Origin: a virus
Lineage: Duplodnaviria; Caudoviricetes
DNA: 64,000 bases
Reading direction: 5' to 3' (one strand)
IMG/VR virus record: IMGVR_UViG_3300013426_000029
Location: 1 to 64,000 of that record
Made by a program: the position numbers and the translations under genes. The first letter of the stretch is position 1, and each line of letters opens with the position of its first letter. This document shows positions 2,812 through 58,579 of the stretch, piece after piece. Under the pieces are notes generated by a model. The model did no database searches and was not told where the DNA came from. It saw nothing but the letters and a program-made list of their open reading frames with translations.

Positions 2812-2816
2812 ATTAT

Positions 2817-3365: not shown

Positions 3366-3372
3366 TTAAAGA

Positions 3373-3888: not shown

Positions 3889-3928
3889 CTATAATTATAG
3901 TAAATTTTATTTAAAATTAAATCTTATT

Positions 3929-5143: not shown

Positions 5144-5160
5144 TAAAATTAAGATAAATT

Positions 5161-5397
5161 ATGATAATTAATATATTAGCTATACTATTATATTGTATAG
5201 TATTACCTATATATATAGTTTTATATTATATAGTAGCTATCTTTAAAACTGGAAATATTTCATTTCTAAGTTTTACTGAAGATAGTATTTTAAATCCATT
5301 GTTTATTATTGGTATAATAGAATTAATAGTTATTGGTAATTATGTTAGATTTATTGTTTCAAAGTTGTTATGCTATTTGTGTAATAGGTGCAAATAG
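5161..5397 (+). CDS. Small membrane protein
   Basis: Two hydrophobic segments; ends at TAG, and readthrough would end at TGA 5418. Confidence 0.6.
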   Translation: MIINILAILLYCIVLPIYIVLYYIVAIFKTGNISFLSFTEDSILNPLFIIGIIELIVIGNYVRFIVSKLLCYLCNRCK

Positions 5398-5722
5398 TCT
5401 AAACTTATCCTATGGTGAGTTTTGTATTTTAATATTCTGTTATTTACAACCTATAATAATATTATTGTTTGGAATACTAAATATTAAACACTTATTTGGT
5501 AAATTGACTATAATGAGTATGATATTATATTTATGTTTTTATAGTCAATATTCTATTTCAACAGAATCATTTTATAGAATATATAGTGATCTACACCATT
5601 GGGCAATTTATATGGGAATAACATATATAGAAATAAATATATTACTTTATATTTTATTTCCAATAATCATAATTTTAATAAATTATATTCTATTTAAAAT
5701 AAATAAGAAATGTATTATTTGA
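5342..5722 (+). CDS. Multi-pass membrane protein with internal repeat
   Basis: Hydrophobic; LSYGEFCILIF...P and ITYIEINILLY...P are similar segments; ATG at 5342. Confidence 0.7.
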   Translation: MLDLLFQSCYAICVIGANSLNLSYGEFCILIFCYLQPIIILLFGILNIKHLFGKLTIMSMILYLCFYSQYSISTESFYRIYSDLHHWAIYMGITYIEINILLYILFPIIIILINYILFKINKKCII

Positions 5723-5786
5723 TAAATTATTCGGTTTAAGAAAATAGAATAATTTTATTTTATTAACTTTTAAAATTTTATTAAAA

Positions 5787-5888
5787 ATGAAACAAGTAAA
5801 GAAAGCAATTAAATGGTATTTAAAGAATGTAGAAAAATCTTATGTAAGTCTTCCTGAAGGAACTTTTCCTTATTTCTATATTAATTAA
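5787..5888 (+). CDS. 33-aa small protein
   Basis: MKQVKKAIKWYLKNVEKSYVSLPEGTFPYFYIN with AT-rich leader. Confidence 0.55.
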   Translation: MKQVKKAIKWYLKNVEKSYVSLPEGTFPYFYIN

Positions 5889-5923
5889 ATTATTTGTAAC
5901 AGTGTTAGAATATTTATTCTAAC

Positions 5924-5982
5924 TTATTGTAATATTAGCATTGAAGGTTACAACTCCTTATGAGAAAAATAGAGTACAATAA
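5924..5982 (+). ncRNA. Twister ribozyme #3 (type P1, no P3)
   Basis: UUAUUG-UAA-UAUU-AG-CAUUG-AAGG-UUAC-AA-CU-CCUU-AUGAGAAA-AAUA-GA-GUA-CAAUAA; P1 UUAUUG/CAAUAA, P2 UAUU/AAUA, P4 AAGG/CCUU, T1 UAC/GUA, T2 AG/CU; ends 9 nt before ATG 5992. Confidence 0.85.
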
Positions 5983-5991
5983 AAAATAAAT

Positions 5992-7062
5992 ATGAAGATT
6001 CCAACTTCAGAAGTAAATAAATTAATTTCATTATTAAGAAATAGTAAAAGTATACAAAATTTAACAAATAAATTAGAATCATCTTTATCTAAAGCTATAA
6101 ATTTAAATAAAGTTGATTTATTTGGTAAATTCTTTTCACAAAAAGAAAGATTTAATAGAGATAAAACATCTTATGATAAAATAGTTAAATATTTAACTAA
6201 TAATAATTTAGATTTTAATATTGCTACTAAGTTTAAAGATAAATACCCAGTAGTATAGTCTTATATGACTGAAAGGACAACTTTTAGACCAAACTTAGGA
6301 AATGAAGTTCTTGATATGTTTAAAAATAAGGGTAGAACTATTGAGACAACTATACCTAAAAGAAGTAAAGTAAGTCAAGAATACAATGATTTTACTAAAC
6401 AGATTAATGAATTAAGAGGTGGTCTTAAAGATTATTTTTAGTCAAAAGCATATCGTAAAAAATTACGAGATATACTTTTTAATAATCCAAATGATAGAAA
6501 ACAGGAAGGAAAATATATAAATGATATATTAAATACATTAGATGGAGTTGCAATAAATATAGGTCATAGCAATAAAAATCTTGGAGGCACTGCTAGTTTT
6601 GGTACTGTTTATTTAAATAAAAATTCTACTTTTGATGGTAATCCATTTACACTTCTCCATGAACTTATACATGCTTCCAAATAGTATGGAAATTATAACA
6701 TAAAAGGCAAATATCTTGATGCACATAATAGTGATATTGCAAATAGAGTTATGGATTATAATGATATGATTGGAGATAATTTATTTTCATCAGTAAATTT
6801 AAGTGCAGCAACTCCTGCGTAGCAAAAGTATATTAAATATCTAACAAACGGAAGGGAATTATCAGCAAATTTTAATCCAATACAAGCATTAATAGAAAAA
6901 AATGGTTGGTCTCCTAAACAAGCAGTAAGGCTTATTAAAGAAAGAAATTATTTAGGAAACACAACAATTAAAAATTATTATAATGTATTTGGAGAAAAAA
7001 ATGTAGAACGTTTAATATAGAATGTATTAAAAAATGGAGGTAAATTGATTAAAAGAAAATGA
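5992..7062 (+). CDS. TAG-recoded 356-aa zincin-like (HExxH) protein with C-terminal KNGGKLIKRK
   Basis: Frame open to TGA 7062 with TAG at 6256, 6439, 6682, 6820, 7018; TLLHELIHAS motif plus downstream GRELSA. Confidence 0.88.
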
Positions 7063-7208
7063 ATAAATTATTTGATATAACACCAGAACAAGAAAAAATA
7101 ATTGATAAATATTTAAAAGATATAGAATATTATAAAAAAAATAAAGAAAAAATAGATAAAGAAATAAAAGAAAATAAAAATATTAAATTTATCCCTTATT
7201 CACTTTAA
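7059..7208 (+). CDS. 49-aa charged protein coupled to the zincin gene
   Basis: ATGA overlap, no TAG, uses CAA for Gln. Confidence 0.6.
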   Translation: MNKLFDITPEQEKIIDKYLKDIEYYKKNKEKIDKEIKENKNIKFIPYSL

Positions 7209-7212
7209 TATT

Positions 7213-8547
7213 ATGGCAAAAATATGGCATGGTTTTACATACGATCCTAATAAAAAACGCTGGTTTAAAGCTAATGGATAGCAAGTAACATTGGGTAAAC
7301 AGATTAAAACTTCTGATGGTAAATATTATTAGTTAAATTCTGATGGTACTATTACTTATGCAGGAAGTGTTTCAGGAGGTGTAGATTAGAATTTTGTAAA
7401 TACACAAAAAAAGTATAAACGCAACGTAGACACTACATTATTAGATAGGTCTATGCGTTCTGGACTTATTGGTTCAAAACAAGGTTGGAGGTTTGATACA
7501 AACGCTAAAAACATAAAAATTAAAGAAGTAAATGGTAGACGATATTATTTAGCACCTAGTACGTATGATGGTAAAAATACTTGGTTTAGTTTTGATTCTG
7601 GTTTGAATATAGCATAGGATAAAGTCCAATAGTAGAAATTAATTGAACAAAAGAAAAATAAAATTCTTGGTCGTTCTAATGGAACAGGTTGGTGGGATTC
7701 TATAAAAAACGATGGAATAGCAGCTGGAGCAATTAATCATGTTTTAGATAGTGCAAATATTAATAATTAGTGGTTACGAAGTGCTGTTAATTTAGGATCT
7801 CTAGGTTTATATATGCTACCTGGCGTAGGTCAAGCTTTATCTTTAGCTGATGCTGGACTTGCTGCAGCTAGAGGCGATTGGGGTAATGCAGCATTAAATC
7901 TTGCATTTATGGTTCCCGGTGCACGTTTTCTTAAAGGTGCTAAAACTTTAAGTAAAGTTCCTATGCTTAGTAAATTAGGTAAAGTTTTTGGTGGAAGCGG
8001 AGCTACAAGATTAGAAAAAATGCAAATAAATGCAATTAAAAGTAGTCTTCCAAAATATGCAAAAGTTCAGAACAAAACAATTTTATCTCATATAAGAAAT
8101 AAATCATACGCGTGGACTCCAAATGTTACTAAAAAAGTTTTATCTCAAGCAGATCCGTATTTACACACTTCTGTAAAAAATTTATTTGGTTTTACAAAAG
8201 GAAATAATAAATTTTTTAATGCAACATTTAATCCAAATACTACAGGCTTTGGAGGAAATGTTAAACGCGCGTTAGGTTATGCATAGCCTGCAGCACTTAT
8301 AGGTGGTGGTGCATATGGATTTTATAGAGATAAGCAAGCAGAAAATGAGGCTAATACATGGTATCAAAATAATCAAAAACAAGATATTGAAAAGAATCAT
8401 TCTGCATATGTATTAGGTAGAATGTCTGACGATGAGATAAAGAGATTTTTAATTGATTCACATTAGATGACTCAAGAAGATGTATCTAAATTAACACCTT
8501 AGCAAATTAGTGATTTTAAAAATTTAGTATTAAACAACGAAATCTGA
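7213..8547 (+). CDS. TAG-recoded 444-aa protein with pre-toxin-like hydrophobic hairpin
   Basis: ATG 7213 to TGA 8547 with 9 TAG codons (including CAA-TAG-TAG at 7627-7635); LPGVGQALSLADAGLAAARGDWGNAALNLAFMVPG. Confidence 0.88.
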
Positions 8548-8711
8548 TTTTATTATTAAAGTAATTGAATATGAATATGATACTCTATTAAAAGATAAAT
8601 AAATTAGCTAATAAAAATTTTAGATTAGAAAAGTCATATTCTTATTCCAAAATTAAAAGAAACTATATTAAATAGAAAACAACTTATTAGAAATTCAAAT
8701 TAGTTGGTGAT

Positions 8712-8783
8712 TGCCTTATCGTATAATGGTTATTACACGAAATTTTGGATTTTGTAATCTAAGTTCGATTCTTAGTAAGGCAA
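8712..8783 (+). tRNA. tRNA-Gln(UUG)
   Basis: Acceptor TGCCTTA/TAAGGCA, anticodon arm CGAAA-TTTTGGA-TTTTG, T arm CTAAG-TTCGATT-CTTAG. Confidence 0.85.
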
Positions 8784-8799
8784 CAATTTTATTAACTTT

Positions 8800-11476: not shown

Positions 11477-11864
11477 TGGGGCTTATTCTTCTTTAAGAGA
11501 TCAAGGTGGGGTAGGATTAGTAGTACTTAAAGATAATGAAAAAATATTATCATTTTCTCATAATTATAAACATACTACTAATAATCAAATGGAGTTATTA
11601 GCAATCATAATTGCATTAGCTACTATTAAAAAACCAATTGATGAACTTATAATCTATTCTGATAGTATGTATTGTGTTGGTTGTATTACTAAAAATTGGA
11701 AGCGTAAAAAGAATCCAAAATTATGGAAAGAGTTTGATAAACAATATTTAAGAGTATCTTCATTGTGCCCTAATATTATATTTCAACATATAAAAGGACA
11801 CAATGGAGATACTTGGAATAATTATGTAGATAAATTAGCAAATAAAGCAAGTCAATTATTATGA
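11445..11864 (+). CDS. rnhA: Ribonuclease HI
   Basis: YTDGA, TTNNQMEL, IYSDSMY, HIKGH...NNYVDKLA. Confidence 0.95.
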   Translation: MKTKSYQVYTDGAYSSLRDQGGVGLVVLKDNEKILSFSHNYKHTTNNQMELLAIIIALATIKKPIDELIIYSDSMYCVGCITKNWKRKKNPKLWKEFDKQYLRVSSLCPNIIFQHIKGHNGDTWNNYVDKLANKASQLL

Positions 11865-31255: not shown

Positions 31256-32386
31256 ATGGGACTTGATATTAGTTTTAGAAAAGTAAAAAGAACTGATTTA
31301 TCTTATTTTCGTAAGGTTAATTTTTTAGTTAAATTCTTTAATGATAAATACCCAGAATTAAAAAATTGTTATCCTATAGATATAACTAAAGAAGATTTAT
31401 TTGATCTTAAAAATCGATGTGAAGAAGTATTGCACGATCATACTAAAGCAGATAAATTGCTTCCAACACAAGATGGATTTTTCTTTGGGTCTGTAGATTA
31501 TGATGATGATTATTATAAAGATGTACAAGATGTATTAAATGCTGTAGCTGATATGTTATCAATAGATTTAGCTAATAATGAAAATATAGAATTTGAAATT
31601 TGGTATTAATTGTTTTATAAACGATGTGTGATGATTAAACAAGATTTCATTAAAATAATCCAAAGTCAACTTGATTGGGATGATAAAATAACTAAATTAG
31701 AAAATATTCTTCAAACAGAATTATATATGTCAGATATGTATTCTCATCCTACGTTTTTATTTGAGTATATTATTAGGGATAAATTTACCAAAGACGGGGA
31801 AGATATTATCTATACCTATATTTATGAAGAAGGAGAACGAGATCTAGAATATTTATGGAATAAAGTAAAAGATTATAGAAAATAATGGAATTTAATAAAT
31901 TAAATTCAGTAACTGATAAACTAGGAAAATACTTTTATACTAGTAATGATGATTATATTACTGTTACTAAATGGAGTAATGGAGAAGGATATGATATAGA
32001 TTTAAATGGAAAACTTGTTCAACTTCATGAATGTGAATTAGATGCTATTAATTATTTAGTTCAAACATTACGATATGAAGAAAAGTGATTTTTGTAAAGT
32101 AGCTACAACAATATTAACAATAGAAGATTTCTTTGATAAATCTTTTAAGTTAAATATAGATTTAATATCTTCTTCGGTTTCAGACTATTATGTTATTTCA
32201 AGTATCTTATTTGAAACTAATTACGGTATTAAAGGTAAAGAATTCCTTGATTGGTGGTTTTATGAAAGAGATACAAACAAATCCACAAAAGAACAATTAT
32301 GGGATGAAAATGGAGCTCCTATAGATGTAGACTCTATTTTATCTTTATATCAATATATGGAAGATAATTATAGAAATAATTGTTAA
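31256..32386 (+). other. Four hypothetical CDS (31256-31609 with LPTQDGFFFG, ~31631-31885, 31885-32088, 32075-32386)
   Basis: Coupled standard-code ORFs. Confidence 0.7.
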
Positions 32387-32398
32387 ATTAAATAATTT

Positions 32399-32721
32399 AT
32401 AGTATATTTGACTTTGACGTAGTGCTTCTTTGCAGATCAGTTCTAGCACATAATAAACATTAGAACCGTGCGTGTATTCGCTTGTCAAAGCTAACTGCCC
32501 TAGGAATCCCGCTCTGTCTTTGGCCCTGACAACGAGTGCTGGTATAAATCGGGGCGTGCCCAGCATCACAGTGTGTATACATTGGTTAGTAGCGATGACT
32601 CCTTAGTGAAAGTCTCAGACTTTTAACGAAAATAGTACCTAAGAAGGGGAAGGAGTTCAAGTTGGCATATATCAATAGAGTAAAAATTGATATTACCAGC
32701 ATAGGGGGCCCTATATACTAT
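32399..32721 (+). ncRNA. Unassigned large structured RNA (~320 nt)
   Basis: GC-enriched region with no + strand ORF, closed by AUAGUAUAU/AUAUACUAU; stems CUUUGAC/GUCAAAG, GUUCUA/UAGAAC, GUGCUGG/CCAGCAU, ACUCCUU/AAGGAGU, UAUCAAU/AUUGAUA; G-U pairs favour the + strand. Confidence 0.7.
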
Positions 32722-32730
32722 TGTTAATTC

Positions 32731-32770
32731 AGATAAGTCCTAAGTATTTTCTTAGGACTTATCTTTTTTT
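32731..32770 (+). terminator. Intrinsic terminator after the ncRNA
   Basis: AGATAAGTCCTAAG/CTTAGGACTTATCT followed by T6. Confidence 0.88.
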
Positions 32771-32778
32771 ATCTATTT

Positions 32779-33996
32779 ATGATTGAATATTTATTAGGAA
32801 AAAGTTCTGCTGGTAAATTTAGATTTGCCGTTATTGAATGTAACGAACAATGGAGTGAACCCGATAAAGGCTATGTTATTCAACGTAGTTATGGGCAAGT
32901 AGGCGGTAAAACAACTTTATCTCCTAAGATTATTGTAGATAGAACTAAACAGAAAAGAAATTGGAAGGAACAATATACTTTACAATTTAATTCGGAATTA
33001 AAGAAATTTCTAGATAAGGGTTATATCAAAGTATCTAAGCATCCTAATGAGTATACAAATGAAGAACTTAATTCTATCTTCGGTGAAGTTAAAACTAATC
33101 AATATGGAGTAATTAAACCTATGCTAGCTAAGCAAGCCGATAAAGTTACTAATAAAAAGATATTTGATAATGTTTGGATAGCTTCAAAAAAATTAGATGG
33201 CGTAAGATGTCTTATGTACTATAAAGATGGAGAAATACTTACTGCTTCTAGAGGTGGAGAAACATATCAACCATCTACAGTACATATTCGTAATGATGAA
33301 CGGTTATTAAATTACTTTAAAAATAATCCAACTCATATTTTAGATGGGGAATTATTTAAAAGATTTAAGAGCCTTCAGCAAATTAGTGGTGCTGCTAGAT
33401 TAGAAAAGAATGCTTATGATTGTGAATGGCTTCAATACTGGATATACGATGTATATGATACTTCTAATCATGATTGGAAAGCTGAAGATAGAATAAAACA
33501 TCTTCTTAATAGTTCAATTACTTATAATATTCCATTATATGCAGATACTTCCATGGATGAAGAAGATAGTAATATATTTATATTAATGCAAGAATCTGTT
33601 TCTGGTTGGGATAATATAGATAAATTACACGATCAATTTGTAAATGAAGGATTTGAAGGTGTAGTAATTAGAAATCCAGATAAACCTTACAAACCAGGAG
33701 GTCGTACAAATGATATGATTAAAGTAAAGAAATATAAATCTGAAGATTTTAAAGTAATAGGATATAAACTAGGTCTTAGAGGTTCTGAAGATATGACTTT
33801 TACTTGTGAATTAGAAGATGGTAGAACATTTGAAGCAATGCCTTGTGGAACAAGAGAACAGAAAGTAGAATATGTTAAGAATTTTGATTCTAAATATAAA
33901 GGACATAAAGCAGAATGTACTTTCTTTAATTATTCAGATGATGGAATTCCTACTCAACCTAAATTAAGAATCTTTAGATTTGACTTAGAGAAATGA
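32779..33996 (+). CDS. ATP-dependent DNA ligase
   Basis: KLDGVR, LDGEL, EGVVIR, KVK motifs. Confidence 0.95.
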   Translation: MIEYLLGKSSAGKFRFAVIECNEQWSEPDKGYVIQRSYGQVGGKTTLSPKIIVDRTKQKRNWKEQYTLQFNSELKKFLDKGYIKVSKHPNEYTNEELNSIFGEVKTNQYGVIKPMLAKQADKVTNKKIFDNVWIASKKLDGVRCLMYYKDGEILTASRGGETYQPSTVHIRNDERLLNYFKNNPTHILDGELFKRFKSLQQISGAARLEKNAYDCEWLQYWIYDVYDTSNHDWKAEDRIKHLLNSSITYNIPLYADTSMDEEDSNIFILMQESVSGWDNIDKLHDQFVNEGFEGVVIRNPDKPYKPGGRTNDMIKVKKYKSEDFKVIGYKLGLRGSEDMTFTCELEDGRTFEAMPCGTREQKVEYVKNFDSKYKGHKAECTFFNYSDDGIPTQPKLRIFRFDLEK

Positions 33997-35882
33997 TAAT
34001 TAAAAACAATATAGTATTTGTTTATGATATAGAAATATTTCCTAATTTATTTCATTGTACTATAAAAGATACAGAATCTAAACAATTATATTTCTTTGAA
34101 ATATCTGCGAGAAAGAAACAGGCAAAAGAGCTTGTTTCTTTCTTTTTGACTAAAGGTAGATTATTTTGTGGATATAATAATATACATTATGACAATCCAA
34201 TTATTAATTTTTTAATTGATAAAAAAAATTCTTTAGATAGTATCTCTTGGTATCATATGTGTAATGTATTATTTCAATTAAGTAATTTAATTATAAATAG
34301 TGAACCAGGAAAATATAACAAATGGAGTAAGTGGAAGTATGCTAATAATTATCCTACACTTGATTTATTAACTATGTTATATTCTTCTAAACTAAGAGTT
34401 GGTTTAAAAGAAATGCAAATAACAATGAAATTTCATAATGTTCAAGAGTATGATGGAGATTTTAGTAAACCATTACCTATATCGGAAATAGATCATCTAA
34501 TACAATATAATATTAATGATGTAGAAAGTACTGAAGAATTACTATATAGATGTAAAGCAGATATAGATTTAAGATTAGGTATTGAACAAGAATACGGAGT
34601 TGATGTTCTATCTAAAGATGGAATGACAATTGGTATGGAGATTATTAAACAGAAGTATCTTGAAAGAACTGGAAAAGAATGGAAAGATATTAAAGATCTA
34701 AGAGATGCTTGTGATTTAATTCCATTAAAAGATGTTATATTTAATAATATACATTTTAAAACTAAACAATTACAAGATATTCTATCTTGGTTAAAAACAT
34801 TAACTGTAGACCCAGGTAGAAAAGGATTAGAAAAACATTTCTTATTAGATAATCTTGAAATATCTTTAGGTGTAGGTGGTGTTCACTCTGTTAATACTCC
34901 TACTATATTTAAAGAAGATGATACTTGGAGTATTAGTGATGTGGATGTTGCTTCGCTATATCCAAGTTTAATTTGTAGTTATAATCTATATCCACCACAA
35001 TTAGGAGAAGCGTTTCTTGATGTTTATTCAGGTATTAGAAAAGAAAGATTAGAAGCTAAAAAGAATGGAGATACTGTAAAGAATCTTACATTAAAGTTAA
35101 GTCTTAACGGTCTTTCTGGAAATCTTCAAAATGCATATAATTTTTGTTATTCACCACGAACTGTTATGAAAATCCGAATGAATGGTCAACTAATGCTATT
35201 AATGTTGGCTGAAAGATTACTTGGGATAGGATGTAAGCTAATTCAATTAAATACTGATGGTATATTCTTGAAATGGCCTAAAGATAAAAGAAAGGACTTT
35301 GAACAAGTAATGAAGGATTGGGAAAAAGAAACTAAATTAACTCTTGAGGAAGATCAATATGAAGCATTTTATCAATTTGCAATTAATGATTATTTAGCTA
35401 TATCAAGAGGATATTCGGAATCTAAAAACCCTAAATTACTTAAAAAGAAAGGATTATTTATAGATACAGTACATCTTGGTAAAGGTATGCAACCAATGAT
35501 AATACCTAAAGCTATAAATAATTATTTTGCTAATAATATTCCAGTTGAAGAAACAGTATACAATGATAAAGATATTAATAACTTTATTACTTATCAAAAG
35601 GTGGCTAAAAAATTTAGAATAGAATATAACGGAGAGTTAATAACTAATACAAATAGATATTATATCTCTATCAATGCTCCTTATTTATTTAAATGTGAAG
35701 TAGATACTAATGGCGCAAGAAGTAGATATATTAATATGCTTAAAGGGCATGGTGTAATTATAGTCAATAATTTAGATGAAATTAAAGAATTTCCTAAAAA
35801 TATTGATTATAAATATTATATAGCAGAAGCTAATAAGATTATACAAAAATTTAAATGTGTACAATTGAGCTTGTTTGAATGA
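33993..35882 (+). CDS. Family B DNA polymerase
   Basis: Exo YDIE and GYNN..YD; polymerase DVASLYP, KLSLNGLSG, NTDG. Confidence 0.95.
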   Translation: MIIKNNIVFVYDIEIFPNLFHCTIKDTESKQLYFFEISARKKQAKELVSFFLTKGRLFCGYNNIHYDNPIINFLIDKKNSLDSISWYHMCNVLFQLSNLIINSEPGKYNKWSKWKYANNYPTLDLLTMLYSSKLRVGLKEMQITMKFHNVQEYDGDFSKPLPISEIDHLIQYNINDVESTEELLYRCKADIDLRLGIEQEYGVDVLSKDGMTIGMEIIKQKYLERTGKEWKDIKDLRDACDLIPLKDVIFNNIHFKTKQLQDILSWLKTLTVDPGRKGLEKHFLLDNLEISLGVGGVHSVNTPTIFKEDDTWSISDVDVASLYPSLICSYNLYPPQLGEAFLDVYSGIRKERLEAKKNGDTVKNLTLKLSLNGLSGNLQNAYNFCYSPRTVMKIRMNGQLMLLMLAERLLGIGCKLIQLNTDGIFLKWPKDKRKDFEQVMKDWEKETKLTLEEDQYEAFYQFAINDYLAISRGYSESKNPKLLKKKGLFIDTVHLGKGMQPMIIPKAINNYFANNIPVEETVYNDKDINNFITYQKVAKKFRIEYNGELITNTNRYYISINAPYLFKCEVDTNGARSRYINMLKGHGVIIVNNLDEIKEFPKNIDYKYYIAEANKIIQKFKCVQLSLFE

Positions 35883-36733
35883 AGGCATATACTATTACTA
35901 AAAGTATTACTAATAGAGATAATAATGCATTACGTATTTATTTTAAAGATATAAATAAACATTCATTATTATCTAAAGAAGAAGAATTAGATATTGTTAA
36001 AAAAATAAAATCTGGAGATGAACAAGCTAAGAATAAATTAATTACTTCTAATTTAAGATTTGTTATTTCTATTGCTAAAAAGTATCAAAATAATGGTTTA
36101 GATTTAAATGATTTAATTCAAGAAGGTAGTCTTGGATTAATAAACGCAGTTAATTTCTTTGATGAATCTAAAGGATATAAATTTATATCATTTGCAGTTT
36201 GGTATATACGACAAGCAATTACTAAAGCATTAACAGATACTTGTAGAGTAGTAAGAGTTCCTTTAAATCAAATTACAAATGTAAATAAAGTTAAACGTGC
36301 TATTAATAAAGTAGAATGCCAAACAGGTAAGAAAGCTTCTATTGAAGAAATATCTAAATTAACTAATCTTTCTTCTTCTAAAATTAATAATACTGAAACC
36401 GCTATAAAAACTTCAGTATCTTTAGATACACCTATTTCTGATTCTGAAGGAGATTGTTTAATTAATATTATTCCAGATAAAGAAACGCAAGAGACAGATT
36501 ATTTAGTAGAAAAAGACGATAAAAATAAAGCAGTTGAATATATATTATCCAAATTATCTCCTAGAAAAAGAGATATAATTAGAATGTCATTTGGTATAGG
36601 AATGTATCCTATGCTAAATGATGATATTGCTAATTATTTTGGAATAGGTAGTGAAAGAGTTAGACAAATAGAAAAAGAAACAATTGCCTTTTTACAAAAG
36701 AAATATAAAAACAAACTTAAAGACTTATTATGA
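35879..36733 (+). CDS. Sigma70-family factor of the Bacteroidota primary-sigma type
   Basis: ITKSITNR N-terminus, NLRFVISIAKKYQ, DLIQEG, KFISFAVWYIRQAI, SLD, ERVRQIE. Confidence 0.93.
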   Translation: MKAYTITKSITNRDNNALRIYFKDINKHSLLSKEEELDIVKKIKSGDEQAKNKLITSNLRFVISIAKKYQNNGLDLNDLIQEGSLGLINAVNFFDESKGYKFISFAVWYIRQAITKALTDTCRVVRVPLNQITNVNKVKRAINKVECQTGKKASIEEISKLTNLSSSKINNTETAIKTSVSLDTPISDSEGDCLINIIPDKETQETDYLVEKDDKNKAVEYILSKLSPRKRDIIRMSFGIGMYPMLNDDIANYFGIGSERVRQIEKETIAFLQKKYKNKLKDLL

Positions 36734-39700
36734 ATATAACTAAACGAGACGGATCGATTGAAAAATTTGATATTAATAAAATTATTAATGCTGTAAGTAA
36801 AGCATATAAATCAGAAGGATATACTATTAATGATGATATTATAGATGAATTAAAAAATCTTACTACTACATATATTTCAGATAATATTTCAGTAGAAAAA
36901 ATACAAGATGAAGTAGAGCAAATTTTAATGGATAATGCTCCTTTTGATGTAACTAAAGCATATATTACATATAGAGAAAAACATAAACAATCAAGACTTA
37001 TTAGAGAAAGAATTGATTATATGAATAAATATAGTCAATCAAACGATAATGCTGCATCTTCTAGTGAAACTGATGGTAATTCTAATGTTACCATTAAAAA
37101 TGTAGCTAATCTTGAAGGGGAAGTATATAAAACTACTAATAGAATCATTCAAAGACAACGAATGAAAGATAAGTTAAATGAAATGTTTCCAGAAGTAGCT
37201 AAACAATATGAAGAAGATTTAAATCATCATATTATATATACGCACGATGAAGCTAGTACTCCTGTTTTAAAGAATTATTGTATGGCAGTATCTTTATATC
37301 CTTTAATAGAATATGGTACTTCTACAATGGATGGATTAAAGGCTTCTGCTCCTAAAAACTTAGATAGCTTTTGTGGCCAATTTGTTAATCTTGTATTCTT
37401 ATTAAGTTCTCAATGTAAAGGAGCTGTTGGGTTTGGAGAGTTCTTTAATTTCTTTGATTATTATTGTGCTAAAGAATGGGGGCCTAATTATCATCTTAAA
37501 GAAGATATAATTGTAGATACAGATTATGTAGTTAATCCAAAAACTATTGGTCAAAAAATAGAACAATATTTTCAACAAGTGGTCTATTCATTAAATCAAC
37601 CAGCAGGTAATAGATCATATCAATCCCCATTTACTAACTTTAATTATTTTGACAGTAATTATTGGCATAGTTTATTTGATGATTTCTGTTTTCCTGATGG
37701 TAGTAAACCTGTATGGGAAAGAGTAGATTTTCTTCAAAGAAAATTTATGAATTGGTTTAATGAGGAAAGAACTAAAACTTTACTTACATATCCTGTAGAA
37801 TCTATGTGTTTATTACATGATGGTAAAGATGTAATTGATAAATCATATAAAGATTTAGCTGCTGAAATGTGGTCTAAAGGGCATAGTTTCTTTGTGTACT
37901 TATCTGATAATCCAGATGCGGTTGCAAGTTGCTGTTTTAGCAAGGATACTAAATTTTTATGGAAATCTTCTACAAGTGGGGTTCATATTAGTACCTTTAA
38001 AGAATTTCTTGATCTTCCCTATAAACAAACGAAAGAAAATTTTAAAGTATTTCATAATGGTTCATGGATAAAAGGTAAAATAATTTCTCTTCCAAATAGA
38101 CAAATGTATAAAGTTATCACTTATAATAATAAAGAATTTATTATGAGTGATAATCATATTAATGTTACGTATGATGGAGAAAAAAGAACAAAAGATTTAA
38201 CAACAGATGATTATCTTATGTTCAATACTTCGACACTTTCACCTGTTACAGAAAATAACGAACATTTAACTTATGAACAAGGTTTGTTAATAGGGTTATT
38301 CTTAGGTGATGGAACCTTTGGAAATTATGTATGTCTTGATGGTAGTGTTCATAGTTTTCAACTCTCTCTAAATAAAGAAAAATGGGAAAAAGTACAAAAC
38401 CATTTATCAAAAATTGGAGATTTTAGATTAGGTACTATATATAATAATGTATATCCTATTCATTGTTATAATAAAGAATTAACTACATTTATAGCGAAAT
38501 GGACTGGTAATGAACCTAATAAGACTTCTGCTTTAAATAAATCTTTAAATCTAGATTGTTTTTTACAGTCAGTAGAATTTAGGAGAGGTATTCTTGATGG
38601 TTGGTATATTACAGATGGAGGTAATTCAAATAGATGCTATACTATAAGCAAACATTTGGTTGAAAGAATGGAAGCTTTATGTACTACATTAGGGTTGCAA
38701 ACTATACTTAATATATCAGATAGGACAGATGAAGCTGTAATTATTAGAGGCCAAGAATTTAACAGAAATTACCCATTATATTGTCTTAGATGGTATGTTG
38801 ATGCTAATCATAGATGCAATAAAACTAAAGATAAATCTTGGAAGAAAAAGAATAATAGTATATATTGGAAAATTAAATCCATAGAGCCAATAGAATATAA
38901 AGATAATATATATTGTGTTCAATGTGATAATCAAGATGAACCCTATTTTACATTACCTAATGGGTTAATTACTCATAACTGTAGATTGAGGAATGAAGTA
39001 GTTAATAATACTTTTAGTTCAACTACTGGACTTACGGGTGTACAAACAGGTTCAGTTAATGTAATTACTCTTAACTTAAATAGAATAGTACAAGATTGGT
39101 ATAAAGAATATAATAAATCAAAAGATAAGTTTGATTTAGATACTTTGAAACCCAGTTTTAAAGCTTATTTATTAAAGATTCTTGAAAGAGTTTATAAATA
39201 TCAAGTAGCTTATAAAACAATGTTGTTTGAACTTGAGAAACAAGGTATGCTTACTGCTTCAAAGGCTGGATATATTTCAATGAAGAAACTATTTTCTACT
39301 ATTGGTGTAAATGGTTTTAATGAAATGGCGCAGTTTATGGGGTTAAAAGTAAGTAATAATGAACAATATAAAGACTTTATTGCTTATGTATTTAACATTA
39401 TATCTACTTTTTGTAAAGAAAAATCTACAAAGGATTATCTCTTTAATCTAGAAGTAGTGCCAGCAGAAAGCTTAGGTTCAAAAAATTATAATTGGGATAA
39501 GAAAGATGGTTATATTGTGCCAAATAATGAAGTATTGTATAATTCTTATATATACGATGCACACGATCCTAATACTTCTGTTCTAGATAAGTTTGTATTA
39601 CAAGGAGGTAAAGTAGCAAAAGCATCATCTGGAGGACAAGCACTTCATTGTAATCTAGAAGACCATTTAAGCAAAGAGCAATATCTTAAACTTATAGACT

Positions 39701-39924
39701 TTGCTATACAGAAAGGTACATCATATTTCACTTTTAATATTCCAAATAGTCAATGTGATAATTGTGGTTTTATTACTAAGCACCCAATAAAAAAATGCCC
39801 TATGTGTGGTAGTAATAATATTACTCAGTGGACAAGGACAATTGGATACTTAAGACCAATTAAAGCTATGGATTATTATAGACAAATAGAAGCAAATAAC
39901 AGAGTATACAGTAAAACAATTTAA
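36730..39924 (+). CDS. nrdD: Anaerobic ribonucleoside-triphosphate reductase (class III) with intein
   Basis: N-terminal ATP cone, IYTHD, ASC|CRL, CxxC..CxxC and RTIGYL glycyl-radical motif. Confidence 0.96.
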   Translation: MNITKRDGSIEKFDINKIINAVSKAYKSEGYTINDDIIDELKNLTTTYISDNISVEKIQDEVEQILMDNAPFDVTKAYITYREKHKQSRLIRERIDYMNKYSQSNDNAASSSETDGNSNVTIKNVANLEGEVYKTTNRIIQRQRMKDKLNEMFPEVAKQYEEDLNHHIIYTHDEASTPVLKNYCMAVSLYPLIEYGTSTMDGLKASAPKNLDSFCGQFVNLVFLLSSQCKGAVGFGEFFNFFDYYCAKEWGPNYHLKEDIIVDTDYVVNPKTIGQKIEQYFQQVVYSLNQPAGNRSYQSPFTNFNYFDSNYWHSLFDDFCFPDGSKPVWERVDFLQRKFMNWFNEERTKTLLTYPVESMCLLHDGKDVIDKSYKDLAAEMWSKGHSFFVYLSDNPDAVASCCFSKDTKFLWKSSTSGVHISTFKEFLDLPYKQTKENFKVFHNGSWIKGKIISLPNRQMYKVITYNNKEFIMSDNHINVTYDGEKRTKDLTTDDYLMFNTSTLSPVTENNEHLTYEQGLLIGLFLGDGTFGNYVCLDGSVHSFQLSLNKEKWEKVQNHLSKIGDFRLGTIYNNVYPIHCYNKELTTFIAKWTGNEPNKTSALNKSLNLDCFLQSVEFRRGILDGWYITDGGNSNRCYTISKHLVERMEALCTTLGLQTILNISDRTDEAVIIRGQEFNRNYPLYCLRWYVDANHRCNKTKDKSWKKKNNSIYWKIKSIEPIEYKDNIYCVQCDNQDEPYFTLPNGLITHNCRLRNEVVNNTFSSTTGLTGVQTGSVNVITLNLNRIVQDWYKEYNKSKDKFDLDTLKPSFKAYLLKILERVYKYQVAYKTMLFELEKQGMLTASKAGYISMKKLFSTIGVNGFNEMAQFMGLKVSNNEQYKDFIAYVFNIISTFCKEKSTKDYLFNLEVVPAESLGSKNYNWDKKDGYIVPNNEVLYNSYIYDAHDPNTSVLDKFVLQGGKVAKASSGGQALHCNLEDHLSKEQYLKLIDFAIQKGTSYFTFNIPNSQCDNCGFITKHPIKKCPMCGSNNITQWTRTIGYLRPIKAMDYYRQIEANNRVYSKTI
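37933..38979 (+). mobile_element. 349-aa intein with LAGLIDADG endonuclease in NrdD
   Basis: Starts CFSKDT, ends LITHN followed by C; LIGLFLGDG and GILDGWYITDG motifs; removal restores VASCCRLRNE. Confidence 0.95.
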
Positions 39925-46145: not shown

Positions 46146-47767
46146 ATGATATTAGATTCAAATAAAGTGGGTATTTGGTTTACTTCAGATACCCATTTTT
46201 ATCATAAAAACATTATTAAGTTTGCTAATAGACCTTGGAATACAGTAGAAGAAATGAATAATACATTAATTAACAATTGGAATGAAGTTGTTAAACCTAA
46301 TGATACGGTATTTCATTTAGGAGACTTTGCTTTTACTTCTAATGGTAATTGGAAAAAACTTATTAATGAATTAAATGGAAAAATCTATCTTATATTAGGA
46401 AATCATAAAATTTACGAATTTTAACAAGGAAACCTGAGGAAACCTAATTATATTTGTGCTGTAATAAATTTATTATTTTATGAGACAGCACAAATTAAAC
46501 ATTGATTATTTTAATGAGATTAATTCTCATGAGAAGGCGTATGTATTAGGTTTCTTATATACAGATGGATCAAATAGGGGAGATGGTATAATATTTTCAC
46601 AGAATGTTGAAAGAATAAATATTCTTGAGAAGATAAAGAAGGCTTTAGATTCTGAAGCTCCTATTAGAGAACGAGTTTCAGGACTTTTTGTTCTTGAACT
46701 GTTTAGCAAAAAAATGGTTAAGGACGTTGAACGGCTAGGTGTTGTTAGAAACAAGTCCCTAATATTACAATTTCCAACTAAAGAGTTGGTTCCAGAGGAG
46801 TTTATGTCTTCTTTTATTCTCGGATATTTTGACGGAGATGGATACATTTGGAACGGTAAGAGAAAGAAAATGATAGTTAAAGATTCTTCACGCAAAGAAG
46901 GATTTAGAGAAAGGATAGTATATAATGTAAAATTTACTTTTACTGGATGTGTATCCTTTATTGCTCCTCTACAAGAGTATTTGGTTAAGGTAGGTATAGT
47001 AAAGAGAAAAACTAAATTAAACTACTCCAAAGCAAAGAATACAAATAATTCTACTTGTGACAAAGTGTGTACTATGGAGTACTCCGGCAGAGGACAGATA
47101 AAGAATCTCTATGAGTATATGTATTCAAAAGCCCCTATTTGGTGCAATGAAAAGAAGTTAAAATTTGAAAAAATATTTTGTGCTTCAGATGAGAAATCAC
47201 CTGTAGAAACTGTGTTAACTGAGGAAACGGCTGAGAGGCTAATCCTCAACCAAGCCTCTAATGTGGAGGAAGGCTCATCGACTATCCCTGAGATGGGAGT
47301 AGGACCAAGTGGTCCGAAATACACAGCCCCTAACGAGCAAAGTCGAGGGTGTGAGATAGTCAGTTCTCATATGAATAAAGAAGTATGAGCTATGGGTATG
47401 AGATACCCTATCGGTACTAGTCTAACGAACTAGTATAAACACCAAGGACGAATTACATAGTCCGGGTAAATATGTATTAGATTTATTTGAAGGGGTATAC
47501 AATCAATTGTTAATTAAAATTGATAATAGAAAAGTATATTTAAATCATTATCCTTTTCTTTGTTATGCTGGAACATATAGAGGTAAAGATTATAATACAA
47601 TACAATTATTTGGACATGTACATAGTAATAAAGAAAATACTCATGGTAAAGATAAAGATAGATTAAAATATTTATTTCCTACTCAATATGATGTAGGAGT
47701 AGATAATAATAATTATTATCCAGTATCTTGGAATCAAATATTAGAAATTATAAATAAATATGGCTAA
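46146..47767 (+). CDS. Metallophosphoesterase split by a group I intron; exons 46146-46406 and 47447-47767
   Basis: SDTH, HLGDF, GNH|D restored by splicing, NHYP, GHVH, DVGVD. Confidence 0.9.
46407..47446 (+). mobile_element. Group I intron 3 carrying a LAGLIDADG gene
   Basis: Exon ends CAU, intron ends G; P3 CUGUGU/ACACAG; P7 GACUA/UAGUC; IGS not confidently located. Confidence 0.87.
46480..47388 (+). CDS. Intron-encoded LAGLIDADG homing endonuclease
   Basis: AYVLGFLYTDGS and FILGYFDGDG; C-terminus runs through the ribozyme core. Confidence 0.9.
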   Translation: MRQHKLNIDYFNEINSHEKAYVLGFLYTDGSNRGDGIIFSQNVERINILEKIKKALDSEAPIRERVSGLFVLELFSKKMVKDVERLGVVRNKSLILQFPTKELVPEEFMSSFILGYFDGDGYIWNGKRKKMIVKDSSRKEGFRERIVYNVKFTFTGCVSFIAPLQEYLVKVGIVKRKTKLNYSKAKNTNNSTCDKVCTMEYSGRGQIKNLYEYMYSKAPIWCNEKKLKFEKIFCASDEKSPVETVLTEETAERLILNQASNVEEGSSTIPEMGVGPSGPKYTAPNEQSRGCEIVSSHMNKEV

Positions 47768-53980: not shown

Positions 53981-53984
53981 ACAT

Positions 53985-54032
53985 AATAAGGGGAAGAATG
54001 GCTATAGCAGCTATTCTTCCCCTTATTTTTTT
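53985..54032. terminator. Terminator at the convergence of the early (+) and late (-) arms
   Basis: AATAAGGGGAAGAATGGCT/AGCTATTCTTCCCCTTATT followed by a T tract, between converging genes. Confidence 0.88.
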
Positions 54033-57000
54033 ACTATTGCGATTTAAAATATGCGTTTGCTGTATCTTTTATTGATCTAGTAAGACCTGTATTATTAAGC
54101 AACAAATATTTCCAAGATTTATCTCCAAACAATGATTGCCCTGTCTATTTAACTATCTAAACCGGAGCGGTATAATATGGAGGATTCATATTTTCTCCAA
54201 AGAACTATATTACATTAATTGGACCTTTAAACTAATCAAAAGACCTTGAAGAAGACTTATAAAGTATTTCTGTAAAAAAATTTTTTAACATAGGATTATC
54301 TTTTGCTGTCTTTTTAAATTCTGTATATTTCGGGCCTAATATTAACTAATAAAGTAAACCCAATAATAACGCAGACAATGCATCACTACTTAATTTATAC
54401 ATATTAGCTTTAACCATTGGATTTCCTTTTATATAAGCAAGTCCAGCCTTTAAACCATCTTCTTTACAAAGACTTATAATAGAACCAATAGAAGGAAATA
54501 TACCCTATACAATAATAGGTATATCTTTATATACAGGACTACCAGTATCTTCTGTAGTTATATTACCAACTTCATCAAAAAATAGTTTATTACCTTTTTC
54601 ATCTGTTTCCTATTCAGATGTTAACTATGATACTCCATTTTTCTAAGTTGACATAAAATAATTATTCACAATACCATTCATCCAAGTAGAGAATGAACCA
54701 AATAAAAAACCATATGCTCTATGCTCAGCCATAGCTTTTTTACTTGTATCATAAGAACCATATATATTATCGCCCAATGCTCTTATCGCATTAATTTCAC
54801 GTTTAGAATATGGTTCTGGAAGATTATCGGTCATATTAATTGGCGCATCTAAATGGTCTTCATTATATTTTTTTACTTGAGAAAAATATAAAGCCCTAGC
54901 TTTTAAATATTCTTTAGAACCTTTAGCTCCATATTTAAATGCTTTAAATCTTTCATCCTTAGTCCAATCATATTTTAAATTACCGTTTTGATCTAAACTA
55001 AAAGCTTCCCATGAACCATCATGCATACATTTAGCTACAAATAAAGTCATACGATTTAAAAAGTCTGGACCTCTTAATGTACTATACATAAATGTTTCTC
55101 CATTAAGAATACCACTACGTCCAGTTTTTGCTCTTTCTGCAATACGCCCAATATCTGTATTTGAAATTCTATATTTTAAACAAAGTTTACTTAATAAATT
55201 CTAAGCCATTGGGTTTGCTGTAGAATATTTAAATACATATGCATATGCTTTTCTTACATTTTCTGGTTCTATATCAGTATTTAATTTTATAAACGAGCGC
55301 ATAAAATTTTGTTCAGCACCTTCAAATGTATCACGTAATGAACCAATAATATTACCACCTAAAAGCATGTGTGTTACAATTCTTTTTATTGGAGAAATTA
55401 CCCCGATTATTTTCTATTCTGTTTTAGACATAATAGAAGTATGAAATACATTTACTTTTAGATAATCTTGCATATATTTAATTTCTTTTTCTACTACTGA
55501 TTTATTACCATTATAATTCCCTGTAAGGTATAATTGAAGCATTAAAGCTTTGGAACAAACTAATAATTTATTTAATTGAGTTGTTGAAATATGTTTAGCT
55601 AAGAAATCAATTAATAAATTTTCAACATTGGTTTCAAAAAATGGAGTACCATATTTTTCAATCCAACGTTTTCTTTCTTGTAATGCACTATTATAATTAT
55701 TAGTACTTGTTACCATAGTAGTACTAAATGGATTTACTAAATGCATTCTATAAAAGTTTTCTGAATCTCTTGACATCATTTCTCTTTCTTCTTCAGTAAT
55801 ACCTTCAACAAATTCATCAAATGCAGTAGATGCGTCTCTAATTTTTCTTACAAAGTTTTTCATACCAGTTACTATGCCAGCAGCACTTGAGCGTTGTGTT
55901 CCTTTAGAAGCTCTTTCAAGTGGAACCCATAGATATTCTGGATGCCTTTTTATATACTCTTTGATTTTAGGATCTTCTGGAGATGTAAATATTGAATTTC
56001 CGTTTCTAGAAATACACTATATTTGATAAAGAACTTTCTTTAAAAGAGTTCTTTCTTCAGAATCCAAATCATTACTTTCGTCATATGGATTTTTAAACGA
56101 CATGGCATCAGAATCAGGATCGTATAAATTACGATATACTGATGCCTAATTACCTATAATCATATTCTAAGCAGAAGTATAATTTTTATATTTATAAAAA
56201 TCATCAAACATACCTCTAATCTTAGAATCATAATACTTTAAGAATTCTTCTGATACAGTATCATAAGTAATTAATAAATTATTTACTACTGTTCTAATAT
56301 TTTCATCATCTACTGTTGCAGCAGTAAAGAAATTTAAGTTAATACTACTTAAACTGTTTTTATTTATAGCAGTTTCTCCTCTTAACGTAAGTAATGCATT
56401 TACTGACATTACATATAGTGTAGCCAAGTTTTTATTAAATTTACTACTTCCCTCTAATGCTCTAGCTACTTTTTCTGGGTCTCCAAAATCTGGGCGAATT
56501 GTTTGAATTTTAGTAATAATATCGGTTAATGCTTGAATCTAAGTTACTTTTGTTTTAGCGTCTTTTAAAGTTTCAAAACCATAACGTTCATATTCTTTAG
56601 TTAAACTTAAATTTGCACCATCAGTAACTTTATTATATTCATTGAATATTTCTTCAATTGGGTCTGTAAAAGTAGTATTTAAAAAATTATTATTAATTTT
56701 ATTATCTGGATTTGCTTCATTAACTATAGAAAGAATTTTCTAGAAATAATTCTTATTAAATTCTCCAATATTAAAAGCTCTATACGCACCATTACCACAA
56801 GAACTAACCACTCCAAGTGTTCCTAATATAATATTATCTCCTAATTCTGGCAACATTTCATTAATAAGTTCCATAGTTCTTACAGCTTCAACATTACCAT
56901 AATCAGATTCAAGATCATTATATTCTGTATCTTGCTTATAAAAGCCTAATATGTTATTTCTATTTCTTCTTATATTAGCGTGCTATTTAATATTAAAATT

Positions 57001-58578
57001 AGATAGAGTAATTACATCAATAACTCCGTCTTTACTTTTAAAAATTAAAATTCCAGCATCAATTAAATCATCAAGTAATTTCCAATTGTGATTAATTACT
57101 TCTTTACCATTTACTTCCTCTTTTGTATAATCTAATAAATATTTACTAAATATACTTTCTAACTATTGAGATATAGTAGCCAAACCTGTAACTTTTTCAA
57201 AAGAAAGAAAACCTTTTTCATAAGCATTTTTAACTGCATCTTTTATTTTCTAAACTGTATAACCTTTATTATCATCTAATTTATCAAGATGTTTTGTTAT
57301 AAGTTCTTTAATTTCTTTATTCTTATTTTTATCAGTTTTTTCTTTAATGTCATACTATTTTCCATCAATAATTACTTCATACATATGATCAAGTTCATTG
57401 ACTTTCTTAATTATAATTGGTTCTATACCAGTTGGATCTTCAGATGGGGCATATTTAATCCAAGATTCTGCAGTTTGACCCAATCCATCTTCACGGAGAT
57501 TCATAGTTGGAAATATTAATTTACAATTATCAGTAGCTTTAACTATTACGTTTGAAGAAATAGTAATTGGAGTTGAATTATTTTCTATAAAATAAGATGC
57601 ATTCTTTACATACTTATGCATAGCAAAACCAGAATCTGATTTACGTGTACTATAATTTATAGTACCATGAACTTTAGCTTTAAGTAGATTACCATTCTAT
57701 CCATATTGAAGCTATACTGGAATTACGCTTAACTAAATATTTTTTGTATTAACTCCATTATATTCTAATATAGATTTTAAAAAAGCTAACTAATATTTAA
57801 TACGTTCTTTTTTAACTTGAGGCCATTCATTTGGATTAGAAGCAGTAGTTTTTATAACATATAATCTGATTGTACCATCATCACCAATAGTTATCCAATC
57901 AAAGTGTCCATAAATATCTTCTCCACTTGATTTTATTTTAGCTTTTAAATTTACACCTCGTATAGTCTATTTTTCAGAATTTAATTCACCAGTTTCGGAT
58001 ATAAATGTTTTTCTTAATGCATCCTATACTACTGCTAAATTAGGAATTTTTTCTTCAGAAATTCCTTTATTTTTTAATGCACCCTATACTTTAGCTCCAT
58101 CCTATTCAAATAATATTTTAGAACCAGCAATCATATGAACATATTTTGCATCCTTTTTAATTAATTCATTCTATTGCTTTTCTGTTTTTAAATGCTAATC
58201 TATCTATTCATCATTCCAGCCTTTAGCTGCTAATTCCTATTTTACCTTAGCATCATAATTTCCATCTTCATAAGTTGGAACTAGTAAATGATCATTAATA
58301 TTAAATGCTGAAGAATTAATAAATAACTAAACATTTAAACCACCTTCTGGGGCAGGAGAAGGGTCATTTGGGTCAACGGATTCTACTAATTTAAGATCCT
58401 TAACATTATTCTATTTTATTTTATCTATCTAACTTTTTTGTCTATCTTTACTAAATACAATATCAGTAATATCTGAAGCAAGTTCTTTATCCCTTAAATA
58501 ATTCATTAATTCAGTATAATTACCAAAGTTCTAAAAAACTTCACCATTTAATATAATTGCATAATTACAATAATTCAT
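54031..58578 (-). CDS. TAG-recoded 1515-aa virion/ejection protein with N-terminal PD-(D/E)xK-like domain
   Basis: ORF-track fragments 54643, 55414, 56167 and 57355 share one frame separated by TAG; GHFDWITIGDDG...VIKTT...YQLAF; ends CAA TAG TAA. Confidence 0.85.
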
Positions 58579-58579
58579 A

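Follow-up and report, generated by a model that had tools for sequence, protein, structure and literature searches.

A conserved pseudoknotted RNA of about 320 nt in large AT-rich uncultured phages, without a detectable link to known RNA classes

The stretch of DNA analyzed here, hereafter the window, comprises 64,000 nucleotides (nt; positions 1 to 64,000) of the IMG/VR record IMGVR_UViG_3300013426_000029, a member of the Caudoviricetes, and is part of a 91-kb viral record (G000). Comparison of four sequence types of one of its intergenic elements shows that positions 32399-32721 encode, on the + strand, an RNA of about 320 nt whose fold is conserved; it consists of four domains and a closing stem and includes three tertiary pairings. 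As a phage gene the RNA is accessory and not tied to a particular neighbour; to judge from sequence searches, it appears to represent a new RNA family, none of the known classes being detectably related to it. An earlier note, made from the letters of the window alone, had proposed a large pseudoknotted non-coding RNA of no known class at this locus, a proposal that is borne out by covariation and by the negative outcome of searches with Rfam 15 and ARAGORN.

The window has a GC content of 26%, tightly packed + strand genes and several tRNA genes. The non-coding element lies in a 392-nt gap between an open reading frame (ORF) of 103 amino acids (aa; 32075-32386, ORF103) and an ATP-dependent DNA ligase gene (32779-33996), the product of which matches Pfam DNA_ligase_A_M (7.7e-20). 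The GC content reaches 0.455 in 32400-32599 against 0.264 for the whole window. When the 21 gaps that are 120 nt or longer and lack a + strand ORF are compared, the one beside the ligase gene has the highest GC (0.38 versus 0.16-0.31). Stop codons occur throughout all six frames of the element and, with the six frames closed, a coding region, including one with recoded stops, could be ruled out, in agreement with the GC-richer stretch of some 320 nt without a + strand ORF that had been seen initially.

Homologues of the element were found in eight records, all of them from large AT-rich uncultured phages, which fall into four sequence types (G and L numbers are our own handles for records and loci). 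Type W comprises the window, G001/L003, L057 and L063; type X is G018/L042, L042 being a 187-kb phage; type Y comprises G019/L046, with L046 a 180-kb phage, and L059; and type Z is G009/L069. Among 28 related viral loci gathered via the ligase, nhmmer detected the element in L003 only, the ligase of which is 97% identical and the element of which differs from that of the window at 3/392 positions. A blastn search against 50,697 phage records returned only a 42-nt terminator-like match in two Listeria phage fragments, BLAST against 16 whole related records returned only G001, and pattern scans with GCCCTAGGAATCCCGC and TCGGGGCGTGCCCAGCA yielded G001 plus chance matches in GC-rich phages. Scans with other exact patterns taken from stretches of the element identified L042, L046, L057, L059 and L063. 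The first of these presents the order ORF104, element, ligase as in the window (nhmmer E 6.6e-53), L057 and L059 are metagenome contigs, and L063 is a contig of a metagenome-assembled genome (MAG) titled Candidatus Melainabacteria (G017). The remaining pattern loci (L040, L041, L043-L045, L047-L056, L058, L060-L062 and L064) were judged to be chance matches because nhmmer was not significant for them (best E 0.038 for L064 and 0.17 for L045) and several of them fall within coding regions.

With a covariance model (R1) built on the 5' and central domains, a distant copy missed by BLAST was then recovered in G009 (61 bits, E 8e-15, the E-values of these models being rough). A second model including the G009 copy (R2) located the RNA in 5/34 phage records and in 4/18 of those that are at least 90% complete, with one copy per RNA-bearing record and no new type. 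An R1 match in G071 (22 bits) was rejected because the central domain is deleted there and the same 3-kb AT-rich locus gave five more matches at E<0.1. In search of a host copy, R1 was run against a sample of 151 genomes of the class of G017, and R2 against a sample of 151 genomes of its order; both returned only the phage contig of G017 itself. In all, the family was searched for by pattern scans, in 34 phage records and in about 300 genomes.

Compensatory substitution is the main evidence for the fold. In a MAFFT alignment of types W, X and Y (A2; 7 rows, 6 distinct, 76 pairs, with helix Hf in an earlier, wrong register), 98.5% of the cells are paired and 12 pairs are changed on both sides, compared with 5.3±1.5 in shuffled alignments (0/500) and 0-3 in slid controls. 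A model-fitted alignment of the 5' and central domains that includes type Z (A5; helix Ha lies outside the model) presents 7 pairs changed on both sides versus 1.8±1.1 after shuffling (0/500). When the four types are tabulated by hand, 33 of the 75 homologous pairs are compensatory, 4 are one-sided and 38 invariant, with 4 positions mismatched in one type. The proportion of paired positions is 84/85 in W, 82/83 in X, 84/84 in Y and 75/76 in Z, whereas sliding the 3' partner by 1-3 nt leaves 26-37 paired, a control that is weak because the structure was derived from the same sequences. The numbers of G-U pairs (6, 3, 5 and 2 in W, X, Y and Z) far exceed those of A-C pairs (1, 0, 0 and 0), which identifies the folded molecule as the + strand RNA. 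Homologue collection and covariation analysis had been named in the earlier note as the way to check its proposal, and the compensatory changes among the four types support nearly all helices and both of the pseudoknots that it contained.

Folding energy is uninformative by comparison. The whole 372 nt have z-scores of -2.98 (+) and -3.91 (-), but the core without terminal stem and terminator gives -0.29 (+) and -0.85 (-), no better than shuffles, and 16 ordinary background windows of the same genome range from -4.56 to +0.92. An extra thermodynamic stability of the core was accordingly rejected, and the case beyond chance rests on covariation and composition.

Sixteen helices could be mapped in window coordinates, and all of them recur in the same order in the four types, on the + strand. 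The closing stem P1 is formed by AUAGUAU (32399-32405) and AUACUAU (32715-32721), and its sequence changes from AUAGUAU/AUACUAU in W to UAUGAAU/AUUCAUA in X, AUUAGAU/AUCUAAU in Y and AUAUAUA/UAUAUAU in Z, so that all 7 pairs vary among types yet stay complementary. The terminal stem that had been described as 9 bp long is thus real, but its conserved part is the 7 bp present in each type. P1 is followed by a linker (32406-32419) with a stretch of 12-14 nt that is exclusive to W and gapped in X and Y in alignments A2 and A4; X, Y and Z have linkers of 2, 8 and 11 nt, respectively. The 5' strand of a helix CUUUGAC (32413-32419)/GUCAAAG, reported previously, falls in this W-only linker, and that helix is replaced by the conserved CUUUG/CAAAG pairing of Hd.

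The 5' domain (32420-32490), which is nearly invariant in W, X and Y, consists of Hd (CUUUG 32428-32432/CAAAG 32486-32490, with one U-U mismatch in Z), Hb (GUUCUA 32440-32445/UAGAAC 32461-32466, in which a G-C becomes U-A in Z), Hc (GCG 32470-32472/CGC 32479-32481) and the local pseudoknot Ha, where GUGC (32422-32425) pairs with GCAC (32446-32449) in the Hb loop. The crossing of GUGCU/AGCAC with GUUCUA/UAGAAC had been noticed from the window sequence, and Ha indeed covaries, a G-C to C-G exchange giving GUCC/GGAC in Z. A possible extra pairing between CUUCUU (32425-32430) and AAGAAG (32641-32646), both strands of which are invariant, competes with Hd.

The central domain (32490-32590) is closed by He (GCUAAC 32490-32495/GUUAGU 32585-32590), a helix already proposed that is present and nearly invariant across types. 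He encloses Hf, hairpin A, Hg and Hh. Hf pairs CCCG (32508-32511) with CGAG (32533-32536) and reads CCCG/CGGG in X and L003, CCUCG/CGAGG in Y and CCAUG/CAUGG in Z; an earlier register, CUC/GAG, was dropped when types Z and Y revealed the present one. Hairpin A (UGUC 32515-32518/GACA 32528-32531) has its loop at 32519-32527, Hg (UGCUGG 32537-32542/CCAGCA 32560-32565) becomes CCAG/CUGG in Z, and Hh (CAGUGU 32569-32574/ACAUUG 32579-32584) exchanges an A-U for a C-G in X and Y. The strand after He, UGCCCU (32496-32501), pairs with GGGGCG (32551-32556) inside the Hg loop to form an H-type pseudoknot, PK1. This third pseudoknot, absent from the earlier note, covaries at 6/6 pairs (UGUCCG/CGGACG in X, UGCCCU/AGGGCG in L059 and AACGUG/CACGUU in Z).

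In the 3' domain (32598-32656), Hi (ACUCCUU 32598-32604/AAGGAGU 32650-32656; ACCUCUU/AAGAGGU in Y, GGCCUC/GAGGCU in Z) encloses Hj (AAAGUC 32609-32614/GACUUU 32618-32623; AAGAC/GUCUU in X, GAGUC/GACUC in Y and an 8-bp AU stem in Z) and a conserved purine-rich strand, ACCUAAGAAGGG (32637-32648), that does not vary among the four types. W, X and Y share an unchanged 28-nt stretch (32624-32651), and CUUCUUUG constitutes a second invariant strand of the RNA. The variable stem Hk (32661-32700) has the base GUUGG 32661-32665/CCAGC 32696-32700, strand-swapped to CCAGC/GCUGG in Z, and a distal part of varying length. Four helices of the original description, GUGCUGG/CCAGCAU, ACUCCUU/AAGGAGU, AAAGUC/GACUUU and GUUGG/CCAGC, all covary. 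In type X, Hk carries an AU-rich expansion of some 60-80 nt (L042, about 11570-11680, minus strand), and the tolerance of Hk for large insertions makes it a natural tagging site for the RNA.

Hairpin B (32701-32714), with stem AUAG/CUAU, immediately precedes the 3' strand of P1 and is stacked directly on it; W, X and Y share this stem without change, and Z has UAG/CUG. Its loop GGGGCC (32705-32710) pairs with GGCCCU (32522-32527) of loop A, and this long-range contact, postulated on the strength of the window alone, is complementary through a changed sequence in every type (GGCCCU/GGGGCC in W, GACCCC/GGGGUC in X, AAUCCU/AGGAUU in Y and CAACUCC/GGAGUUG in Z), with 5/6 pairs covarying across the four types.

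The RNA is far better conserved than the genes around it. Core identity to W is 84.9% for X, 82.4% for Y and 58.6% for Z; the W and X ligase genes, by contrast, share 54.8% nucleotide identity (41.8% in amino acids), and the ORF103 genes 50.8% (30%). Moreover, three different junctions hold the RNA, in each case on the coding strand: ORF103, RNA and ligase in W and X; a 264-aa ORF, RNA, nrdD (Pfam-tested) and genes for thioredoxin-like and nrdG-like products (named by eye from sequence) in Y; and a deoxyribonucleotidase-like gene, RNA and an exonuclease VIII-like gene in Z. The downstream genes, ligase, nrdD and the exonuclease VIII-like gene, each act on DNA or nucleotides, but not in one pathway. 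The link to a ligase-PolB-sigma cluster, expressed in the title of the earlier note, is therefore not conserved, since nrdD or an exonuclease VIII-like gene stands downstream elsewhere and a near-identical phage differs after the ligase. In most of the ligase-linked relatives the ORF103 homologue abuts the ligase gene without a spacer, and the stop and start codons of the junctions read in relatives overlap or touch (TAATG, TAAATG, AAATGA); hence, the element is an insertion relative to those relatives.

The near-identical phage, G001, is about 99% identical to the window from 29.8 to 33.9 kb and becomes unalignable right after the ligase (window 33979-36980 against L003), the DNA polymerase (33993-35882, phrog_1252, 9.7e-145) and sigma-70 region of the window being replaced by different DNA; the ligase stop codon marks a recombination boundary between the two. 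In L027, L028 and L030 (about 2250-3000), only ligase residues 161-404 are matched and the upstream part is broken into small ORFs, so that the ligase gene may be split or interrupted in these loci.

The carrier phages have AT-rich genomes of about 150-190 kb and are uncultured. At least six contigs of G017 (C87, C108, C119, C136, C209 and C236) are 100% identical to parts of the window; G017 is a 2.4-Mb MAG titled uncultured Candidatus Melainabacteria, and the binning of the phage with it is a lead to the host, not proof.

The affiliation of the RNA was examined against the 4227 models of Rfam 15, which include ROOL, GOLLD, raiA, OLE, HEARO, riboswitches and ribozymes. At gathering score the whole window yields 5 tRNA matches only. 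At E<=10, the region 32250-32900 gives four matches of 10-17 bits against gathering scores of 40-99, all in the AT-rich flanks or the terminator, and the X, Y and Z loci give no match at E<=1. This comparison with Rfam, which the earlier note had called for, places neither the window locus nor those of X, Y and Z in a known family, and its statement that the element could not be matched to transfer-messenger RNA (tmRNA), RNase P or group I/II introns stands. ARAGORN reports four tRNAs and no tmRNA in the window, there is no Rfam tmRNA match either, and the bases 3' of P1 differ in all four types, with no conserved CCA. No RNase P model matches at E<=10 in the window locus or at E<=1 in the X, Y and Z loci, and the conserved-region (CR) motifs of RNase P were not seen by eye. 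The group I intron model RF00028 has no match in the element at E<=10, while the same kind of permissive search, serving as a control, gives a weak signal for it at 47150-47381 of the window (E 6.6e-6; 32 bits, where the gathering score is 50); in addition, the element lies between stop and start codons, where a group I intron would lie inside a gene, and its own ends pair together. Riboswitch and T-box models were also without a match at E<=10. In the literature, to the extent that its text is searchable, we found no description of such an RNA; sequence cannot be searched there, and supplementary catalogues of candidate RNAs (e.g. PMC8040213) may list the motif.

A strong intrinsic terminator had been noted after the RNA, and this is confirmed by the sole terminator-like site in 31800-33300, where shuffles give 0.2: a 14-bp hairpin (32731-32764; -20.5 kcal/mol, z -7.4) followed by 7 U, extending on the + strand over 32731-32771 and ending 8 nt before the ligase ATG (32779). 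Types X and Y also have a hairpin and U-run 3' of the RNA (-20.9, z -5.0 and -22.3, z -5.8, respectively). The three hairpins lie on the same strand as the RNA, are unrelated in sequence and non-homologous to one another, and begin 9-25 nt from P1, a spacing that is not conserved. Antiterminator formation was assessed in W, X and Y with RNAduplex, pairing each terminator arm with the RNA body and comparing it with 300 shuffled arms; 0.15-0.73 of the shuffles were at least as good, so that the real arms show no preference for the RNA body over random ones.

Because the terminators are non-homologous and yet present in three of the four types, the neighbours vary and the terminator arms pair no better than shuffled ones, we lean towards a stable, free-standing, trans-acting structured RNA that would owe its function to its shape and would end at its own terminator. 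Such an RNA would be made as its own transcription unit, or be excised from an operon transcript at P1, with its 3' end at the intrinsic terminator. The fold itself is a P1-closed multi-helix junction of 5' domain, central domain, 3' domain with its purine-rich strand, variable stem and terminal hairpin, the loop of the latter forming 6-7 bp with the loop of hairpin A in the central domain. In trans, the RNA would act by means of this structure, whether as a ribozyme or as a scaffold that binds proteins or ligands, and not as an antisense RNA; the terminator would lower read-through into the next gene as a side effect.

Several observations weigh against this interpretation. The family comprises only four independent sequence types, and the full-length alignment with Z was made by hand, with some Z helix registers set by eye. 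Type Z has no terminator 3' of the RNA. In the window, the terminator leaves no room for a promoter before the ligase ATG, a leader-like layout in which the ligase must be transcribed through the RNA and its terminator. As regards a promoter for the RNA itself, the ATTG-N20-TATATTTG box put forward in the earlier note is not conserved and its start would fall after the 5' strand of the terminal stem, transcription from the sole sigma-70-like match near the 5' end in the window (TTGTTA-17-TATATT) would begin downstream of the P1 5' strand, and the -10-like boxes upstream of P1 in W, X and Y are weak and were picked by eye. Finally, in whole phage genomes no ORF of the W phage presents a pattern of 4/4 RNA-bearing versus 0/6 RNA-lacking phages, the best candidate being an 81-aa ORF found in 4/4 RNA-bearing and 1/6 RNA-lacking ones; with no co-occurring gene, no protein partner is indicated.

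The layout of the locus would also suit a cis-acting leader, that is, a very large attenuator resembling a riboswitch or T-box that would sense a ligand or macromolecule and thereby set transcription past the terminator. The resemblance to lysine, cobalamin and T-box leaders extends to the closing P1, the multi-way junction, the long-range kissing loop (lysine and cobalamin riboswitches combine P1-closed junctions with such a loop), the terminator 9-25 nt on and the same-strand gene that follows it in W, X and Y; besides, all three kinds of downstream gene act on DNA or nucleotides, and the missing promoter room before the ligase speaks in the same direction. Against such a leader, no antiterminator is detectable in W, X or Y, the distance from P1 to the terminator is not conserved and Z lacks the terminator altogether, no riboswitch or T-box model matches at E<=10, and about 320 nt with three tertiary pairings is well beyond known aptamers, the RNA being about twice the size of the leaders named above. 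Furthermore, the downstream gene differs by type, and relatives carry the same genes without the element. We consider a cis-acting leader possible, if on balance unlikely.

Selfish or mobile RNA, in the form of a ribozyme-based or intron-like insertion spreading to gene junctions of the replication module, seems improbable. Its patchy presence in 5/34 related records, the three different insertion junctions, its position exactly between stop and start codons that overlap in relatives and the far greater similarity of the RNA than of its flanks between phages could all be accounted for by mobility, and the same phage has an intein in nrdD and a weak group I intron-like signal overlapping an endonuclease ORF. 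The element itself, however, has no group I or II match, even though the weak group I signal was detected elsewhere in the window; its 5' and 3' ends pair in P1, unlike those of group I or II introns, and as an intergenic element it has no exons to splice. An ORF for an endonuclease, reverse transcriptase or transposase is neither found within it nor conserved adjoining it, each genome has a single copy, and no target-site duplication was seen by eye.

That there is no functional RNA at all, but GC-rich foreign DNA, the remnant of a decayed gene or a site acting as DNA, for instance an origin, with chance complementarity, would agree with the unremarkable folding energy of the core and with the single near-identical copy found at first among the 28 ligase-linked loci, but is hardly credible and, from the aligned sequences, we regard it as excluded by covariation, given 33/75 compensatory pairs including long-range ones, G-U pairs on one strand only, conservation far above that of flanking coding DNA and closed frames throughout.

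Compared with known systems, the RNA shares with ROOL and GOLLD, the ornate RNAs of phages and prophages, its nature as a large, GC-enriched, multi-domain accessory phage RNA with covarying loop-loop pairings and no associated protein gene. It differs from them in its helix layout, in the absence of an Rfam model match, in size (about 320 nt, whereas ROOL has ~580 nt and GOLLD ~800 nt) and in not lying beside tRNA genes, the nearest tRNA in the window being ~23 kb off. RNase P and tmRNA are likewise about 300-400 nt long, with P1-paired ends, several pseudoknots and a GC-rich character that makes them islands in AT-rich genomes, and the 4-bp hairpin on the 7-bp terminal stem of the present RNA loosely recalls an acceptor/T-arm minihelix; neither Rfam nor ARAGORN gives a match, however, and the present RNA has no T-loop, CCA or tag reading frame, nor were the conserved regions of RNase P seen in it by eye. 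To our knowledge, large multi-helix, multi-pseudoknot RNAs are rare, and those of known function are nearly all ribozymes or the cores of RNA-protein machines.

The pRNA of phi29 provides another parallel, as a phage-encoded structured RNA with two complementary loops that covary between phages and whose intermolecular pairing builds a ring. It is, by contrast, about 120-174 nt long, has no H-type pseudoknots and belongs to small protein-primed podoviruses, whereas several of the related records, including two RNA carriers, are 160-190 kb with direct terminal repeats; the present RNA also lacks an Rfam match. According to PMC12286853, kissing loops of ROOL and GOLLD that had been inferred as tertiary from covariation are intermolecular bridges of homo-oligomeric, RNA-only cages, and by analogy an intermolecular bridge could hold for loop A and loop B here, the covariation of which cannot by itself separate intra- from intermolecular pairing. 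It is conceivable, although we hold it to be a rather doubtful proposition, that the RNA would found a new class of large phage RNAs that operate as machines by themselves. Loop A and loop B would then bridge molecules into a head-to-tail homo-oligomer, like the rings of pRNA or the cages of ROOL and GOLLD, or, alternatively, the ACCUAAGAAGGG and CUUCUUUG strands, positioned by the three tertiary pairings, would form the catalytic pocket of a new ribozyme acting during phage DNA replication.

The window presents further features away from the RNA. A second GC-rich island, at 46480-47506, contains a 302-aa ORF that matches a phage endonuclease family (phrog_4645, 6.1e-34), the 3' part of which overlaps the sub-threshold RF00028 match mentioned above; a structured-looking tail of 118 nt follows that match, and the island is probably a group I intron with a homing endonuclease. 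The NrdD gene of the window (36730-39924, 1064 aa) has an intein-splicing domain between residues 450 and 750 (Pfam PF14890, 3.7e-9), whereas the NrdD of the Y-type phage has 737 aa and no PF14890 match. The four ARAGORN tRNAs (Arg-TCT, Glu-TTC, Gly-TCC and Gln-TTG) lie in 1-8784 among long ORF-free stretches (3629-4438 and 6442-7452), and the fifth Rfam tRNA match is cut by the window start. At 53981-63318, five stretches, each 1.3-2.0 kb long, lack + strand ORFs of 50 aa or more and carry only short ones on the minus strand, which is unusual for a tightly packed phage genome.

With some 320 nt, the RNA is small enough for chemical probing and cryo-electron microscopy, and its four variants amount to natural compensatory "mutants" for the three tertiary contacts. 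Whatever its mode of action, Rfam 15 has no entry for this family, and the coordinates reported above allow a seed alignment and a model to be made. Its carriers are phages with no cultured relatives, one of which is co-binned with a Melainabacteria genome. If the RNA acts in trans, as we favour, it would represent a new RNA tool in the takeover of the host by the phage; if it acts in cis, it would be the largest attenuator aptamer known.

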